From: an uncultured Clostridia bacterium
GTDB taxonomy: Bacteria; Bacillota; Clostridia; Oscillospirales; CAG-272
Assembly: GCA_904501985.1 (NCBI GenBank)
Contig: CAJGCT010000002.1
Location: forward strand, 3,596 to 67,595
DNA length: 64,000 nt
Direction of reading: 5' to 3'
The notes beneath the pieces are model-generated. The model was not told the origin of the DNA. It ran no database searches and was given only the letters and a program-made list of their open reading frames with translations. Made by a program: the position numbers and the translations under genes. This document shows, piece after piece, positions 1-6,002 of this stretch (within the stretch, counting starts at the first letter, position 1; each line of letters begins with the position of its first letter).

Positions 1-97
1 TGGATGGTGCGACAGCCTTGTACATTTTCTCCTGGAGCGAGAATTTTTCTTCGGGTGTCAGCCGAAGTGTAAGCGTTTCTGTTTGTGTTCTGCCCAA
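1..97 (-). CDS. 5' part of a small ribbon-helix-helix / MobC-like mobilisation accessory protein (continues off the left edge)
   Basis: The reverse strand reads AAAGAGG-N8-TTG, then LGRTQTETLTLRLTPEEKFSLQEKMYKAVAPS. The 'LRLTPEEKxxL' N-terminus resembles MobC/RHH relaxosome accessory proteins. Only 32 codons are visible and the start is TTG. Confidence 0.3.
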   Translation of the reverse strand, partial: MGRTQTETLTLRLTPEEKFSLQEKMYKAVAPS

Positions 98-151
98 TTA
101 AATTACCTCTTTCTTCAATGATATCGGAATATATTTTTTCGTTTCTTTTGG

Positions 152-183
152 CTTACCTTTTCTTTTCGCAAAGAAAAGGTAAG
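152..183. repeat. Perfect 14-bp-stem inverted repeat (CTTACCTTTTCTTT-tcgc-AAAGAAAAGGTAAG)
   Basis: Read directly. No T-run follows on either strand, so it is not a classical terminator. It lies just upstream of the MobC-like start. Confidence 0.8.
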
Positions 184-420
184 TGGGAGCGGCTTAGCCG
201 CCGGGCTTCTGCCCGATTATGTTCCAGCGTGAGCGCAGGGCAGTGCGAGGTGGCGGCGCCATTTTGGCGCTGGACGTCCACGCGCTATGCTTGCCCCAGA
301 CGAGACGTCGGGGAAATGAACAAAATGATATCTAAACTACGCGCGGGGCTATTCTTTGTTTCATGTGGCGCAATATTTGATGTTTGATGTCATATACTCT
401 CATTTCGTTGTGTATTTGAT

Positions 421-449
421 ATTATACTATAACAATTTTGGATTGTCAA
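421..449 (-). promoter_or_regulatory. Leftward sigma-A-type promoter (TTGACA-17-TATAAT on the minus strand)
   Basis: -35 is the complement of 444-449 and -10 is the complement of 421-426, with an exact 17-nt spacer. Confidence 0.45.
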
Positions 450-479
450 TAGTTTTCTATAATATTTTTGGAGTTTGGC

Positions 480-508
480 TTGACAAATACAACTTTATAT
501 GATAAAAT
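480..508 (+). promoter_or_regulatory. Rightward promoter of the repressor operon (TTGACA-17-TAAAAT)
   Basis: -35 at 480-485 and -10 at 503-508. It is back-to-back with the leftward promoter, 30 bp away. Confidence 0.45.
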
Positions 509-541
509 AGACGTGTAATACAAAATCGGAGGTATATCCGC

Positions 542-1255
542 ATGAGTACGATCGGTACGCGAATCAAGGAGTATCGCTTGCAAAAAGGAATGACACAGCA
601 GGACATTGCCGATGCCCTCGGCGAGAGCTCTGGCAGAGTTATATACAACTGGGAGAAAGGAATCGGCCGCCCCGATTGCGATAAGCTCGCTCGACTTTGT
701 GATCTGCTCGGTGTATCTGCCGATGAGCTGATTGGATGCAAATCTATGACGCAGCATCCCACCGCTGCAGAGTGGAGCACGATACAAAAATACCGTGCTC
801 TCGATGAACACGGTAAAGATGTTGTTGATTATCTGATCGACAGTGAATACAAGCGTGTGACCGTTGCTTCTCGAAAGCCTAAGGCTCGTATGCTGAAGAT
901 CGACTTTTTCAATTATCCGGCATCCGCAGGAACGGGCAACTTTCTTGAAACGGAAACTCCAGAACAGATATTTGTTAAGGAATCTGCAGAAGCAGAAGTC
1001 GCCGATTATGTTATTCCGATCACGGGCAACAGTATGGAGCCTACCTATCACGGCGGTGACAGAGTGTTCGTTGAAAAATGCGATTCTGTCGATATCGGCG
1101 AGATTGGTATCTTCGTTGTCAATGGTGACGCTTATATCAAGGAGCTTGGCGACAAGTGTTTGATTTCTCATAATGAGAAGTATAAGCCGATTCGACTCGA
1201 CGAGAACGACAGCGTTTATTGTTGCGGACGAGTGATTGGAATTGTGGAAGGATAA
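542..1255 (+). CDS. XRE-family HTH repressor with a C-terminal S24 (LexA/CI-like) self-cleaving peptidase domain
   Basis: N-terminal HTH (IKEYRLQKGMTQQDIADALG). C-terminal S24 signature GNSMEP (Ser) ... AYIKEL (Lys). RBS GGAGG lies upstream. Confidence 0.85.
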   Translation: MSTIGTRIKEYRLQKGMTQQDIADALGESSGRVIYNWEKGIGRPDCDKLARLCDLLGVSADELIGCKSMTQHPTAAEWSTIQKYRALDEHGKDVVDYLIDSEYKRVTVASRKPKARMLKIDFFNYPASAGTGNFLETETPEQIFVKESAEAEVADYVIPITGNSMEPTYHGGDRVFVEKCDSVDIGEIGIFVVNGDAYIKELGDKCLISHNEKYKPIRLDENDSVYCCGRVIGIVEG

Positions 1256-1281
1256 TTGAGTTTTTGGAAACGGAGAAGCAT

Positions 1282-2082
1282 ATGCAACATTCCGGTGATA
1301 TCAATCAACTGTTTGAAAGTGTTGGATTCAGTAATGAATATCTAAATGACACTGTAACTTTTTATAATGAATATTTTGATAATGATTCAGAGATGAATGT
1401 ATTCTTTGAAGAGGTCTTTGCCGATGAGAGTAGATTGAATTATTCGCCACGAAGAATGATGAATAGAGTACGATATTTGGTTTCGCTTGCCCAAGACATT
1501 GACAGTATAAGGCATGAATCTGATGCACTAAAAGTGGTGTTTTTTCAATCCTGCATTGAGGGGTTACATAAATTAAGTAAATCGAAAGCACTACATAATC
1601 ATTTTTTTCTCGATAATTCTACTGAAACAGATGGAGAATATATCAAAAATCATTTCGAAATATTTAATATTGCCCCTCTAAAAAATGACGGAGAACTGGA
1701 TGGCGAAGTGTCAGAAATTTATAATAGCGACATGACATTGGTTCTATTTGCAGAAGTCTTGAAGGAAACAAGAAATATTGTTTTACATGAAGGCGATTTT
1801 TGGTCTGTACAATTATTCAATGCAAGAGAAGATTGCGGACTTCTATCATCAATTCAATCCAGTAAGAAATATATCAAGGATGAAATAAAAAACTCATATC
1901 TACAGTACTGCGATGAAGAAACACGAACTTATTTCGAGAAACATGATACACTTATAAAATTCTTGAATTCCTCCGGTGACTTGCTATATTCATTTAATAC
2001 TACATTAGATTTTCAAAAGTTTACCGCTATTTTTGTCAGAACATGCATTAACTTTATTAGAAATTTCATAAGCACCAATTAA
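1282..2082 (+). CDS. Hypothetical protein, AT-rich, with an RNxxxHxxxxW (HEPN/Abi2-like) motif; candidate abortive-infection or exclusion protein
   Basis: The ORF track frame starts at 1219. ATG 1282 is preferred because GGAG lies 6 nt upstream and the start is 26 nt after the repressor stop. Motif TRNIVLHEGDFW is encoded at 1768-1803. Composition is visibly much more AT-rich than the neighbours. Confidence 0.6.
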   Translation: MQHSGDINQLFESVGFSNEYLNDTVTFYNEYFDNDSEMNVFFEEVFADESRLNYSPRRMMNRVRYLVSLAQDIDSIRHESDALKVVFFQSCIEGLHKLSKSKALHNHFFLDNSTETDGEYIKNHFEIFNIAPLKNDGELDGEVSEIYNSDMTLVLFAEVLKETRNIVLHEGDFWSVQLFNAREDCGLLSSIQSSKKYIKDEIKNSYLQYCDEETRTYFEKHDTLIKFLNSSGDLLYSFNTTLDFQKFTAIFVRTCINFIRNFISTN

Positions 2083-2109
2083 AATATTTGCAGGAAAGGA
2101 GTTGACCCG

Positions 2110-3930
2110 ATGCGAGGCGTAATCTACGCGCGATATTCCTCAGACAACCAACGAGAGGAGTCAATCGAAGGACAGATCCGCGAAAACACAGCGTTTGCCG
2201 ATAAAAATGGCATCGAGATTGTGGGCACATACATAGACAGAGCGCTCTCTGCCAAGACCGACAATCGCCCCGAGTTTCAGCGAATGATCAAAGACAGCGC
2301 GAAGAAGAATTTCGATGTTGTAATTGTGTGGAAACTCGACCGTTTCTCCCGTAACCGTTACGATTCCGCAAAATATAAACTGATGCTGAAAAAGAACGGT
2401 GTTCGTGTGGTATCCGCAACTGAAGTAATTGCGGAAGGATCGATAGGCATCATAGTTGAATCGCTGCTTGAAGGCATGGCGGAATACTACTCTGCCGACC
2501 TTGCCGAGAAGGTATCGCGAGGTATGACCGAGAATGCGCTCAAATGTCGATTCAACGGTGGTACAATCCCTTTCGGTTATATGATTGACGAGGATCAGAA
2601 TTATCAAATCAATCCAGCACAGGCTCCGCTTGTTATCGAGATGTTTCGCAGATACGCAGGCGGAGAGTCGATCACCGAGATTATTGAAGACTTGAATGCT
2701 CGTGGCATCCGCACCTCCAAAGGTAATCGATTCAATAAAAACTCCCTTGCGCGCATCTTCTCTAACCGCAAATATATCGGCGAATACAGCTACAATGATG
2801 TGGTGTTCCACGATGCAATCCCTGTTATTGTTTCCAAGGATATATTCGATAGGGTTTCCGTTCGAATGGCGCAGAACAAGCACGCTACAGGTAAGGCGAA
2901 AGCACCGGAACGTTATTTGCTGACAACCAAGCTGTTCTGCGGAAGCTGCAATTCGATGTTTGTGGGTGACAGCGCAAATAAGCCAAACGGCGTAATTTAT
3001 CGCTATTATAAATGTGCCAGTGCAAAGCGTCATGAATGTGACCGCAAGGCAATTCGCAAGGAATGGATCGAAGATCTCGTAATCCAGAAGATCACCTCCT
3101 GGCTGCAGGATGATAAAATGATCAGCGATATGGCGGATGATGTAATGGCGCTCCTGAATGAGGGCAACGAGATGCTTCCGGCACTTGAGGCGCAGCTAAA
3201 GGATGTGCAGTCTTCTATTGCCAACATTATGAAGGCCATTGAAAAAGGTGTAGTCACTCGAACTACAAAATCTCGCCTTGAGGAATTGGAAGCAGAGGAA
3301 GAGAAAATTACGAAAAGCATCAAGATAGAAGAATCAAAAATTCCAACAATCACAAAGGATTTCATCCTCTTTACGCTTAACAAATTCCGTACTCTGGACT
3401 TGAAAGTTGAGAAAAACAAGGAACGGCTCATCGACGGACTCGTCAAGGCGATATTTGTATACGACGATTACATAAAAGTGCTTCTCACCTTTGACGATTC
3501 ACCGATAACAATCCCAACATCCGATGAAATTGAATATATGTCTAATAGTTCGGACATTCAATCGTTCGCTTCACCAAAACAAAAACCATCCCTCGTGGAT
3601 GGTTTTTTGTTTTGTGTTACTCCGCGCGCGGAAGTGAACCCCGTAAATTGCCGGCGCAGTGTAGTTCACACGATACGAAATGCAATTTACCGCGCAAGCC
3701 TCGCTTGCGCGTGGCGATATCCCGTACGGGTCACCAAAACAAAAACCATCCCTCGTGGATGGTTTTTGTTTTCCTCTTACACACCGGCAAGATATTCCTC
3801 CGCAAAGTGCACCGCGGTAGCACCGTCCGCGACAGCCGTAACAATCTGCCTGAGTGCCTTTGTGCGAATATCTCCTATGGCATATACACCATCAATATTC
3901 GTGCGCGTCGTTTCGTCCGCTATAATGTAG
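2110..3930 (+). CDS. Large serine recombinase (resolvase N-domain plus recombinase/zinc-ribbon/coiled-coil region) with an anomalous ~119-aa read-through tail
   Basis: N-terminus MRGVIYARYSSDNQREESIEGQ...VIVWKLDRFSRN carries the catalytic Ser motif. A Cys cluster is present (CGSCNSMF...YYKCAS). From about aa 488 the frame runs through a hairpin repeat, a GC-rich spacer and antisense trxB before the first stop. Confidence 0.9.
   Translation: MRGVIYARYSSDNQREESIEGQIRENTAFADKNGIEIVGTYIDRALSAKTDNRPEFQRMIKDSAKKNFDVVIVWKLDRFSRNRYDSAKYKLMLKKNGVRVVSATEVIAEGSIGIIVESLLEGMAEYYSADLAEKVSRGMTENALKCRFNGGTIPFGYMIDEDQNYQINPAQAPLVIEMFRRYAGGESITEIIEDLNARGIRTSKGNRFNKNSLARIFSNRKYIGEYSYNDVVFHDAIPVIVSKDIFDRVSVRMAQNKHATGKAKAPERYLLTTKLFCGSCNSMFVGDSANKPNGVIYRYYKCASAKRHECDRKAIRKEWIEDLVIQKITSWLQDDKMISDMADDVMALLNEGNEMLPALEAQLKDVQSSIANIMKAIEKGVVTRTTKSRLEELEAEEEKITKSIKIEESKIPTITKDFILFTLNKFRTLDLKVEKNKERLIDGLVKAIFVYDDYIKVLLTFDDSPITIPTSDEIEYMSNSSDIQSFASPKQKPSLVDGFLFCVTPRAEVNPVNCRRSVVHTIRNAIYRASLACAWRYPVRVTKTKTIPRGWFLFSSYTPARYSSAKCTAVAPSATAVTICLSAFVRISPMAYTPSIFVRVVSSAIM
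3571..3613. repeat. Direct repeat copy 1 (43 nt) containing the hairpin AAAAACCATCC-ctcgt-GGATGGTTTTT
   Basis: Identical to 3731-3772 except for one extra T in the T-run. Confidence 0.9.
3731..3772 (-). terminator. Direct repeat copy 2; rho-independent (bidirectional) terminator immediately after the trxB stop
   Basis: The hairpin at 3741-3767 is flanked by A- and T-runs. The trxB stop codon ends at 3777. Confidence 0.75.
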
Positions 3931-4697
3931 CCTGCGTCATCTAACGCCACCTCGCCGCGGTACAGCTCAGACGCAGGCTTGCGGCCTATGCTGACAAAAA
4001 CGCCGTCAACCTCCAAGCTTGTTTCATCCCCGCTTTTCAGATTCTTTATTTTAACACCGCGAAGCCTTTCTTCAGCGTCAAAACAGGCAACCGTGCTGTC
4101 CCAGATAAATTTCACGTTTTCAGCCCTCATAAGCGGCTCATGATATATTTTTGTGGCGCGAAGTGTGTCCCTGCGGTGGATAACGTAAACAGTTTTGGCA
4201 AGATTCGAAAGATAAAGTGCATCCGATGCCGCGCTGTTTCCGCCGCCAACCACCGCCACCACCTTATCCTTGTAAAATCTGCCGTCGCAGTGGGCGCAGT
4301 AGTGCACTCCGCGACCTGTCAATCTATCCTCAGCCTCCACAGAAAGTCTCCGCGGATCAGCACCGCCGCCAATCATTACAGTGCGTGCGTGTATATCACC
4401 GTCGGCGGTGATAAGCCGCTTTATTTTGCCGGAAAGCTCCGCGCCTATAATTTCAGCATACTGCGTTTTTGCACCGAATCGCTCTGCCCCTGCCTGCATC
4501 TTCATTCCGAGTGTAAAACCGTCTACACCTTCATCAAATCCCGGGTAGTTGTCGATAACACCCGTAATCGTCATTTGCCCTCCGGCTGCCATTTTTTCCA
4601 CAACAAGCGTATCAAGACCTGCACGCGCCGCATAAAGTGCCGCCGTATATCCTGCCGGTCCTCCGCCTATTATTACTGTATCATATATATGTGCCAT
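3777..4697 (-). CDS. trxB: Thioredoxin-disulfide reductase
   Basis: GGGPAGYTAALYAARAG FAD motif, redox-active CAHC in HYCAHCDG, and VVGGGNSA NADPH motif. Confidence 0.93.
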   Translation of the reverse strand: MAHIYDTVIIGGGPAGYTAALYAARAGLDTLVVEKMAAGGQMTITGVIDNYPGFDEGVDGFTLGMKMQAGAERFGAKTQYAEIIGAELSGKIKRLITADGDIHARTVMIGGGADPRRLSVEAEDRLTGRGVHYCAHCDGRFYKDKVVAVVGGGNSAASDALYLSNLAKTVYVIHRRDTLRATKIYHEPLMRAENVKFIWDSTVACFDAEERLRGVKIKNLKSGDETSLEVDGVFVSIGRKPASELYRGEVALDDAGYIIADETTRTNIDGVYAIGDIRTKALRQIVTAVADGATAVHFAEEYLAGV

Positions 4698-4760
4698 TGT
4701 AATTCTCCCTTAGTTTTTTACTTTACATCTATATTCTACCTCATTTTTTCCGTAATTTCC

Positions 4761-4773
4761 GTGACTGTGTCAC
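4761..4773. promoter_or_regulatory. Palindrome GTGAC-TGT-GTCAC; candidate Crp/Fnr-family operator in the trxB promoter
   Basis: It lies 22 nt upstream of a TAGAAT -10 hexamer (complement of 4733-4738) and 64 nt upstream of the trxB start. The same motif at the same spacing is seen at trxA. Confidence 0.55.
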
Positions 4774-4819
4774 AAAAAGGCTGAATTTGCGCGCTTTTAT
4801 TCAAAAAATCACGGAATTA

Positions 4820-4848
4820 TTGACACATAGGCACAGACATGGTAAAAT
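4820..4848 (+). promoter_or_regulatory. Promoter of the Crp/Fnr-family gene (TTGACA-17-TAAAAT)
   Basis: -35 at 4820-4825 and -10 at 4843-4848. Confidence 0.5.
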
Positions 4849-4878
4849 AAACTTATAATTTGACGTTATGAGAAGGAT

Positions 4879-5562
4879 ATGATGAAAATAAACAACGAAC
4901 AGCTTATAAATCTTTTTAAAAACACATTTCCATTTTGGGAACAAATGAGTCCTGCTGACCAAGAAATGTTTCTTCGTTCATCTCACAGCTTCACATTCGA
5001 AAAAGGCACAAACATACACGACGGAAACGAATGCACAGGCGTGATACTTGTGAGAAGCGGCTCACTGCGGATATATCTTCTTTCCGATGAAGGCAAGGAG
5101 ATTACCCTCTACCGACTGTTTCCGGGCGATATGTGTATACTGTCAGCATCCTGCGTACTTAATACGATCACATTTGACGTGTTCATTGACGCAGAGGAAA
5201 ATAGCGAATGTGTGGTTGTGGGCGGCTGTGCCTTTGAAGATCTGACACGCCGTATGCCCGAAGCTAAGATATTTGCCCTTGAAGCTGCTCTCAGCCGCTT
5301 TTCCGATGTTATGTGGGTAATGCAGCAGATACTCTTTATGAGCCTTGATAGGCGGCTTGCTATCTTTTTGCTTGATGAAATTGCCAAAAACGGTGGCGAT
5401 ACCGTAAAACTGACTCACGAGCAGATCGCAAAATACATGGGATCTGCCCGTGAGGCTATATCGAGAATGCTTAAATATTTCGCCGCAGAGGGCATTATAT
5501 CCTATTCGCGCGGCGGTATCAATATTCTCGACAAGAAGAGACTTCGCGAATTAACCCTCTAA
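4879..5562 (+). CDS. Crp/Fnr-family transcriptional regulator (cNMP-binding-like domain plus C-terminal HTH)
   Basis: Beta-roll region (GVILVRSGSLRIYLLSDEGKEITLYRLFPGDM) and C-terminal HTH (LTHEQIAKYMGSAREAISRMLKYF). Confidence 0.85.
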   Translation: MMKINNEQLINLFKNTFPFWEQMSPADQEMFLRSSHSFTFEKGTNIHDGNECTGVILVRSGSLRIYLLSDEGKEITLYRLFPGDMCILSASCVLNTITFDVFIDAEENSECVVVGGCAFEDLTRRMPEAKIFALEAALSRFSDVMWVMQQILFMSLDRRLAIFLLDEIAKNGGDTVKLTHEQIAKYMGSAREAISRMLKYFAAEGIISYSRGGINILDKKRLRELTL

Positions 5563-5859
5563 AAGCGACAGTATCTGAGCCTTGGGACGTGCGCCCGTAG
5601 CCTGATTAACAATCTTTCCCTCTTTCATCACAACAAGCGTTGGGATGCTGAATACGCCGAATTCGCCTGCAAGCTCCTGCTCCAAGTCAACGTTTACCTT
5701 TCCCACTACGATATCATCGCGCTCCTCGGCGATCTCGTCAATAATGGGAGAAACCATACGGCAGGGGCCGCACCATTCCGCATAGAAATCAATGAGAACA
5801 GGTTTCTCGCTATTTTTCAAAAGCTCTATATTTTCTTTGTTTATGTTTATAACCGACAT
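5551..5859 (-). CDS. trxA: Thioredoxin
   Basis: WCGPC active site. The start was moved to MSVININ (ATG complement of 5857-5859) because the longer ORF-track start lacks support. The 3' end overlaps the convergent crp-like gene by 12 nt. Confidence 0.9.
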   Translation of the reverse strand: MSVININKENIELLKNSEKPVLIDFYAEWCGPCRMVSPIIDEIAEERDDIVVGKVNVDLEQELAGEFGVFSIPTLVVMKEGKIVNQATGARPKAQILSLLEG

Positions 5860-5923
5860 TTTGTCACATTCCTTTCGTTTTTGATTTGCACCTATATTAT
5901 ACCCTGTATACATTATATTTTCC

Positions 5924-5936
5924 GTGACTTAGTCAC
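5924..5936. promoter_or_regulatory. Palindrome GTGAC-TTA-GTCAC; candidate Crp/Fnr-family operator in the trxA promoter
   Basis: It lies 22 nt upstream of a TATAAT -10 hexamer (complement of 5896-5901) and 65 nt upstream of the trxA start. The flank TTTCCGTGAC is shared with the trxB box. Confidence 0.55.
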
Positions 5937-5940
5937 ATTC

Positions 5941-5970
5941 ACCGCCGCCGAATGACGGCGGTCTTTTTTT
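5941..5970 (+). terminator. Plus-strand rho-independent terminator-like hairpin (ACCGCCG-N8-CGGCGGT plus T7)
   Basis: Read directly. It is the first plus-strand terminator after the crp-like gene and lies beyond the antisense trxA gene. Confidence 0.5.
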
Positions 5971-5973
5971 CAC

Positions 5974-6002
5974 TTGCACTTCGGCGCAATTTATGCTATA
6001 AT
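5974..6002 (+). promoter_or_regulatory. sbcDC promoter (TTGCAC-17-TATAAT)
   Basis: -35 at 5974-5979 and -10 at 5997-6002. Confidence 0.45.

Follow-up and report, generated by a model that had tools for sequence, protein, structure and literature searches.

A candidate family of HEPN-type ribonucleases with an AbiD/AbiF-like motif segment, encoded between an S24 repressor and a serine recombinase in a Clostridia genome

Introduction

HEPN ribonucleases (RNases), which include Cas13, Csm6, AbiD/F, PrrC and the HepT toxins, rank with the most common effectors in bacterial immunity. The HEPN domain is an up-down bundle of four helices, and its RNase activity is metal-independent and usually that of a dimer with a composite active site. 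Exclusion genes may also be tied to the control of an element, as in lambda cI-rexA-rexB, where they are co-transcribed with the prophage repressor. We have analyzed a gene that may combine these features. It occupies nucleotides (nt) 1282–2082 (+ strand) of a 64,000-nt stretch of DNA from an uncultured Clostridia bacterium (contig CAJGCT010000002.1, positions 3,596 to 67,595 of the forward strand), termed the window below, and lies between the genes of an S24-type repressor and a large serine recombinase. The weight of the evidence leads us to favor, with moderate confidence, a new family of HEPN-type RNase defence effectors, with a catalytic segment distantly like that of AbiD/F, guarded by restriction–modification (R-M) in one clade and placed under the S24 repressor in the window.

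The hallmark of HEPN domains is an Rx4-6H motif in which a polar residue (N, D or H) follows the arginine (Anantharaman et al. 2013, PMC3710099). The motif lies where helix 3 ends and the next loop begins, helix 2 carries a conserved acidic residue, and inserts are common between helices 2 and 3 (PMC3710099). The embedding of HEPN genes in R-M operons, often alongside Fic/DOC toxins, is a documented pattern exemplified by PrrC; in the PrrI system the R-M complex keeps the RNase latent, so that it forms a second line of defence (PMC3710099). The closest described family is Abi_2 (PF07751; structure 8vz6), to which AbiD, AbiD1 and AbiF belong. AbiF of C. difficile is toxic, and an R/H mutant is inactive (PMC12373285). 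Abi_2 genes are found on prophages, plasmids and mobile elements and also within R-M operons (PMC3710099, Table 1), and the contexts of the family described here are similar. The proteins are also alike in being of single-domain size (~270–300 amino acids (aa) in Abi_2) with RNxxxH located about two thirds along the chain.

Results

The gene belongs to a family that lacks annotation

The gene has 266 codons, beginning with ATG at 1282 and ending with TAA at 2080–2082, and has a ribosome-binding site GGAG (1272–1275, + strand) 6 nt 5′ of the ATG. The repressor gene ends with a stop codon at 1253–1255, 26 nt before the ATG, so the coordinates in a first-pass annotation of this DNA were right in all these respects. 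A mechanical list of open reading frames (ORFs) opens the frame at TTG 1219; all close homologues begin at the MQ... of 1282. The gene is real, and purifying selection acts on it. Comparison with a 91%-identical relative gives a ratio of nonsynonymous to synonymous substitution (dN/dS) of 0.088, with 0.077 for the repressor and 0.083 for the recombinase in the same comparison.

No family had been recognized for the encoded protein, and taken alone it indeed gives no match in scans of Pfam, PADLOC, PHROGs and NCBIfam. It is not the orphan it had been called. An exhaustive HMMER search over 1.84 billion representatives, with clusters at 50% identity, found relatives in 143 clusters at E ≤ 1e-3, and in 64 of these at E ≤ 1e-10. 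A word-indexed search gave 12 relatives, and a later profile search of the same protein database added only five new proteins. Members are mostly 200–290 aa long. No cluster of the family reaches the threshold of any model in Pfam, NCBIfam, PADLOC or PHROGs, and tblastn against GenBank phages and PLSDB plasmids gave no match. The genome loci that we examined come from metagenome-assembled genomes of the class Clostridia, several of them from gut or faecal samples.

One arginine and one histidine are invariant in the family

We aligned 103 full-length members, a set pre-filtered for the R-x4-H motif and having a mean column identity of 20%. Within this motif-filtered alignment R164 and H169 are the only invariant columns. 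As a check on the filter, R-x4-H was found in 114 of 115 true full-length members. The sole member without the catalytic histidine, P0038, has the sequence RNGLVQEG, with H changed to Q at the aligned position, and is possibly an inactivated or regulatory copy. In the window protein the motif is R164-N-I-V-L-H169-E-G-D-F-W174 (nt 1771–1803, + strand), contained in TRNIVLHEGDFW (residues 163–174, nt 1768–1803), and the family consensus is R-[ND]-x3-H-[ED]-G-x-[YF]-W. Position 165 is N in 75 and D in 18 of the 103 sequences. Five further columns are conserved above 90%, these being G171, E93, M59, F27 and F247. The E93 column (codon at 1558–1560, + strand), part of a CIE motif, is E in 97/103 and D in 5/103.

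The segment at 1768–1803 had been put forward as a HEPN motif from the one sequence. On that basis it does not exceed chance, because such patterns are frequent in shuffles of the protein (64% contain Rx4-6H and 16% contain R[NDH]x3-5H), and a motif in a single sequence therefore proves nothing. Only the conservation of the invariant R/H pair across the family makes it significant.

The motif segment resembles that of Abi_2

When members were scanned individually, Pfam returned Abi_2 for 3/103 (best E = 0.0015, all below the gathering score). PADLOC returned AbiD for 6/103, with Cas13a and Cas13d once each, and PHROGs returned phrog_2158, 'abortive infection resistance protein', for 9/103. Abi_2, AbiD and phrog_2158 are the only families matched by more than one member, and the two AbiD matches with inspected coordinates both span the motif region. 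A confident match to an unrelated family was sought, and there was none.

We compared profiles of the two families using hhalign and an Abi_2 alignment seeded with AbiF of the C. difficile phage phiC2. A global hhalign alignment to Abi_2 gave a meaningless result and was discarded. The sub-profile of residues 105–182 aligned with Abi_2 over 49 columns with a probability of 82.1% (E = 1e-5), a value for a region that had been picked after viewing the full-length alignment. Reversed and column-shuffled controls reached ≤0.6%. The alignment pairs the S-x2-DK-x-YI helix of the family with DK-x2-I of Abi_2, and F-x6-RN-x3-HEG with L-x2-iRN-x-CAH-x-G. Judged by these profiles, the catalytic segment is probably distantly homologous to that of Abi_2.

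Yet the sequences indicate that the family is not a member of Abi_2, because the Pfam threshold is not reached (the window protein itself has no match to PF07751), the remaining hallmark residues are missing and the abiF RNA motif is not present. The Abi_2 hallmarks outside the motif, NYYR, ExxxR-T and P-W, have no counterpart in the family, and the N- and C-terminal two thirds of the family cannot be aligned. In contrast to AbiF systems, in which it serves as antitoxin, there is no upstream abiF RNA (RF03085); the gap to the preceding gene is only 26 nt, or the start codon overlaps hsdM. The likeness to Abi_2 seen in the first-pass annotation is confined to the motif segment.

Predicted structure and the proposed HEPN assignment

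The AF2 model calculated from the 103-sequence alignment has a predicted local distance difference test score (pLDDT) of 93.9 and a predicted template modelling (TM) score of 0.91. It contains 12 helices and three longer beta segments at 125–133, 187–193 and 234–240, so that the protein is not all-helical as had been supposed. Helices 55–76 and 81–99 are followed by an insert (100–152). R164–H169 lie at the C-terminal end of helix 153–170, with coil next, and beyond the motif come a second insert with beta strands and a long conserved C-terminal helix (244–265). In the model, the order of the predicted elements fits the HEPN topology. The motif follows the sequence rule for HEPN domains, with R and H in 103/103 sequences and a polar residue (N or D) after R in 93/103, and its location at the end of a helix follows the structural rule. 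E93 lies in predicted helix 81–99, forms E-x3-K in the window protein and is a candidate for the acidic residue of HEPN helix 2.

A number of results weigh against an assignment to the HEPN RNases. A Foldseek search with the model gave no match in the PDB (best E = 1.2, TM ≤ 0.22) or in BFVD (best E = 0.29), and the AbiF-like structure 8vz6, present in the PDB sequence set, was not among its results. Foldseek therefore lends no support to the putative HEPN four-helix core. Members matched no Pfam model of the HEPN clan except Abi_2, and profile searches of PDB sequences gave no HEPN protein. The full-length hhalign comparison with Abi_2 reached a probability of only 32% (52 columns), nothing aligns beyond ~50 columns, and cross-searches with hidden Markov models were only modestly better than those with shuffled sequences (best 3e-5 vs 7.6e-4). 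The abiF RNA motif is missing, with no Rfam match in 1–6000 at E ≤ 0.1. Finally, the neighbourhoods examined contain no conserved antitoxin or immunity partner, and in the window operon no partner gene is visible for the restraint of an RNase that is predicted to be toxic.

An earlier AF2 model from 13 sequences (pLDDT 77) had likewise given no Foldseek match in the PDB. Matches of phmmer and profile searches to PDB sequences, with the full-length protein and the motif segment, were to AUGMIN, BRIC1 and subunit 6 of cytochrome bc1, and were set aside as chance only. An Rfam scan of 1–1300 gave no match at E ≤ 1.

These data might also be accounted for by an effector in defence or conflict whose fold is new. 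Its catalytic Arg and His would not be HEPN-like and would act, for example, on a DNA, nucleotide or protein substrate, and the likeness to Abi_2 would be a short convergent motif. In its favor, the confident model has no structural neighbour in the PDB or BFVD, similarity to Abi_2 is confined to ~50 columns, and the beta segments and the long conserved N- and C-terminal regions are unlike anything known. However, the motif agrees with the HEPN rules in the spacing of R, N/D and H, the helix end and the upstream acidic residue. The Abi_2 alignment takes in the preceding DKxYI helix and is clearly above its controls, and the weak matches of single members are all to HEPN proteins (Abi_2, AbiD, Cas13a and Cas13d). 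We consider a new fold with another chemistry unlikely, while giving it some weight. What had first been proposed, an undescribed HEPN RNase for defence or addiction, fits the invariant R/H pair, the non-housekeeping contexts described below and the lack of a confident unrelated match, but it does not have a HEPN structure found by Foldseek behind it.

Genomic contexts of the family

Related loci were recovered with a 13-member alignment, and the collection is biased towards two clades. All relatives of 59–91% identity with available flanks keep the trio of S24 repressor, gene and serine recombinase, and the repressor is 77–92% identical across all loci with the trio. At 13 loci from genomes and metagenomes, members with ~30% identity are found in type I R-M operons, each between hsdM and hsdS. 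Their start and stop codons overlap those of the neighbouring genes, and genes for KAP NTPase, TIR or AAA_21 proteins followed by hsdR lie downstream. Other members were found between a Fic gene and hsdM, after NikA/MobC genes, and between FtsK/SfsA and TnsA genes. On an IMG/VR phage contig a member lies between a ParB-methylase gene and a gene for a helix-turn-helix (HTH)-domain protein, with a tyrosine integrase next. The contexts are thus type I R-M operons, mobile elements and a phage, and not housekeeping loci. An invariable position beside a repressor, raised as a possibility at the outset, holds for relatives of 59% identity or more, but not for the R-M-embedded and other members.

A function as a defence RNase is most likely because relatives sit inside type I R-M operons. 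The clade of ~30% identity resembles the anticodon nucleases PrrC and RloC in its location within the hsdM-hsdS-hsdR operon, and the association with Fic/DOC genes is also shared. In contrast to PrrC and RloC, no member has an N-terminal ABC ATPase domain detected by Pfam, members are only 200–290 aa long, there is no detectable sequence similarity, and the copy in the window is not beside R-M genes. The motif of the toxin HepT (DUF86), which we take to be of the type RNxxxHEY/G, can be likened to that of the family. However, the neighbourhoods examined have no MNT nucleotidyltransferase partner of the kind that HepT has, and no member matched the DUF86 or HEPN model of Pfam at E ≤ 0.01. The adjoining gene varies by clade, being that of the S24 repressor, hsdM, or an ORF of 62, 150 or 289 aa. 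The family therefore lacks the conserved small partner gene by which a type II toxin–antitoxin system would be recognized.

Several further features of these loci were observed. Four R-M operons with a member have variable genes between hsdS and hsdR (L015 9944–12240; L016 9903–11820; L018 9891–11498; L019 9848–11779). These encode a KAP NTPase, a TIR_2 protein, an AAA_21 ATPase and proteins of 258, 151, 174 and 643 aa without Pfam match, and may be further undescribed defence genes. Genes like those of TnpV and DUF6809 lie upstream of R-M operons with a member (L015 4953–5680; L018 342–4105; L033 2711–3372; L034 301–860), together with serine recombinases in L018, so these operons may be cargo of a mobile element of the window type. 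In the P0276 clade (L021 2255–3124; also L022–L025) a conserved 289-aa gene with no Pfam match overlaps the stop codon of the member, with a DUF6061 gene upstream and an IS110 transposase nearby. The member and the 289-aa gene may form a two-gene system. Two copies are decayed. One keeps only residues 121–266 of the gene before an intact recombinase (L014 2831–3253), and the other only the C-terminal ends of gene and recombinase (L020 1836–2131). The module can therefore erode in place.

The contexts also bear on whether the protein could be an accessory factor in the life cycle of the element, made together with the recombinase when the repressor is cleaved. It might then act as an anti-repressor, as does ImmA from the immR-immA-int operon in ICEBs1; alternatively, it might be a recombination directionality factor, and some serine integrases have large factors of this kind. 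The order repressor, gene, recombinase is strictly conserved in the clade of the window, and derepression would be expected to raise the gene product and the recombinase together. Against this, the family occurs with the same invariant R/H pair between hsdM and hsdS at the 13 loci with no adjoining recombinase or repressor, and in other contexts that likewise lack both. Nor is there an HExxH motif in the protein, and a repressor that has its own S24 autoprotease domain needs no ImmA-type protease. Moreover, transposons of this type have a separate accessory protein, TnpV, and the elements carry it as well. We judge a life-cycle role to be improbable.

A regulator of the MtlR type, HEPN-like in structure and binding RNA or a ligand without catalysis, would more readily explain the absence of a visible antitoxin partner, as a non-toxic protein would require none, and some HEPN families are indeed non-catalytic (PMC3710099). 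But those families lose the Rx4-6H motif (PMC3710099), which is here the only invariant feature, and we give this explanation very little credence.

The G+C content of the gene is 0.320 (0.273 at third codon positions), compared with 0.475 for the repressor, 0.455 for the recombinase and 0.463 for the whole window. This agrees with the first impression of about one third against about half in the neighbours, which had been taken to suggest separate acquisition. The same contrast is found at 4/4 trio loci (0.31–0.33 for the gene vs 0.45–0.48 for its neighbours), even with synonymous sites saturated, and R-M-embedded members are also lower in G+C than hsdM and hsdR. Since it is common to every relative, including those with saturated synonymous sites and the R-M clade, low G+C is an old trait of the family and not a sign of recent acquisition by the element; the reading of it as a mark of separate acquisition was rejected. 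Low G+C and the lack of database annotation might have suggested a spurious ORF in an AT-rich spacer, a notion refuted by the dN/dS value, the 143 homologous clusters, the confident AF2 model and the conserved start codon and ribosome-binding site, and one that we effectively dismiss.

The host element

The window begins 541 nt upstream of the repressor gene, and therefore the left part of the element lies outside it. A related element, L012, is bounded by host genes on both sides and is ~6 kb long. Its order is an AraC-type host gene, then TnpV, DUF6809, Fic, repressor, gene and recombinase, then host genes. In L001, mobilisation genes (NikA/MobC) adjoin the same core. There are no phage structural genes in any related locus of the clade of the window, and a reading as a prophage was rejected on this ground. 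From its gene content, the host element looks like a small (~6 kb) integrative or mobilisable element of the TnpV/serine-recombinase type and not an evident prophage.

On the right, the element ends at approximately 3733–3750, similarity to the related element L011 ending after GTCACCAAAACAA, near 3745. Beyond it are the trxB terminator, trxB, a Crp-family regulator, thioredoxin and sbcCD. A direct repeat of 58 nt, with copies that are 86% identical and contain a hairpin each, occurs at 3563–3620, forming the 3′ end of the recombinase gene, and at 3723–3780, forming the terminator of host trxB (3777–4697, minus strand). As similarity to L011 stops at ~3745, the element carries a look-alike of its insertion site beside its right end, and this may reflect the target choice of the serine recombinase.

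The repressor (542–1255, + strand, 237 aa) is LexA/CI-like, with HTH_3 and Peptidase_S24 domains (Pfam E = 7e-13 and 2e-17). As read from its sequence, it contains GNSMEP and AYIKEL, holding the Ser and Lys of the catalytic dyad, and a candidate cleavage site PASAG/TG, a pattern of LexA/CI-type S24 proteins that suggests autocleavage. The recombinase gene (2110–3633, + strand) starts 27 nt after the stop codon of the HEPN-like gene, and its product has Resolvase, Recombinase and Zn_ribbon_recom domains in Pfam, with a core of ~500 aa aligned to relatives. In the window its ORF continues to 3930, antisense into trxB, giving 606 aa compared with 502–521 aa in relatives, whereas the first ~500 residues match relatives without a frame break. 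The overrun is caused by a 2-nt difference just past the hairpin (TTTTGTG vs TTT--TG in L011). The added part (3608–3930) may be genuine C-terminal sequence, or it may result from an error in the assembly.

Two promoter-like sites diverge upstream of the repressor gene. The rightward promoter (480–508, + strand; TTGACA-17-TAAAAT with a TG extension, 11/12) probably drives the repressor, the HEPN-like gene and the recombinase. The leftward one (449–421, − strand) is sigma-70-like (TTGACA-17-TATAAT, a 12/12 match), and its hexamers do not vary among four related elements. The two copies (419–442 and 449–472) of a 24-nt direct repeat, which are candidate operators, span the leftward promoter and end just upstream of the rightward one. 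Across the four elements the region 395–545 has a mean column identity of 86%, above that of the genes. No terminator-like site was found on the + strand from the rightward promoter to 3581, and the sole such site downstream of the operon is a bidirectional hairpin at 3581–3607, where the recombinase gene has its 3′ end. Therefore the three genes are probably transcribed as one unit. Together with the promoter and the gaps of 26 and 27 nt, this supports the co-transcription of gene and repressor suggested in the initial reading.

The region upstream of the repressor promoter is a slot for variable cargo (window 340–449; L012 5802–6692; L001 835–3090). It holds a Fic/DOC gene in L012, and a 397-aa HTH_3 gene with two small leftward genes in L001. 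The slot is empty in the window and in L011, so that the perfect leftward promoter has no gene downstream of it in the window. Further upstream, at 202–315, is a G+C-rich non-coding block that is 84–88% identical to L001 and L012, compared with 69–75% for flanking genes. Several hairpins are predicted in it, with one compensatory pair and no Rfam match, and it is a candidate for an origin of transfer or a non-coding RNA of the element.

Discussion

The explanation that we favor is an RNase of the HEPN type with a role in defence. Its catalytic center would be the Arg-x4-His dyad R164/H169, probably aided by N165 and E93, and it is predicted to act as a homodimer in metal-independent endoribonucleolytic cleavage, as the toxic effector of a phage-defence or abortive-infection response. 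In the R-M clade it is translationally coupled between hsdM and hsdS, in an arrangement like that of the PrrC anticodon nuclease, whose R-M partner holds it latent until the R-M system comes under attack. In the window it shares an operon, behind the conserved promoter at 480–508, with the serine recombinase of a small TnpV-type element and with an S24 repressor that is predicted to cleave itself. Because the gene shares its operon with such a repressor, its product should be present at a low, repressor-limited level when the element is integrated, and should rise after the repressor has been cleaved upon DNA damage or phage attack.

The window operon resembles lambda cI-rexAB in that the gene is directly downstream of the repressor and probably on the same transcript, so that it would be expressed in the integrated state. 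It differs in that the proteins are unrelated, the operon runs on into the recombinase, and the element appears to be a small integrative one and not a phage.

More tentatively, and with considerable doubt on our part, the family might be a structurally new defence nuclease, with a novel fold built around an AbiD/F-like Arg-His segment and without ATPase, RNA antitoxin or protein antitoxin. Its activity would then be set by the module in which it resides, either a type I R-M complex, as a minimal PrrC-like guard, or a repressor cleaved in the SOS response. As the model is confident and has no structural neighbours, it would be sensible to determine a structure from the family.

None of Pfam, NCBIfam, PADLOC and PHROGs picks up the family, and current annotators of defence systems therefore overlook it. 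Many operons have the gene strictly between hsdM and hsdS, and this arrangement offers a simple two-part system in which to study how a restriction complex may restrain an RNase. The version in the window suggests a second trigger for such an effector, a LexA-like repressor. If that is true, its wiring would make a small integrative element an SOS-triggered abortive-infection device.

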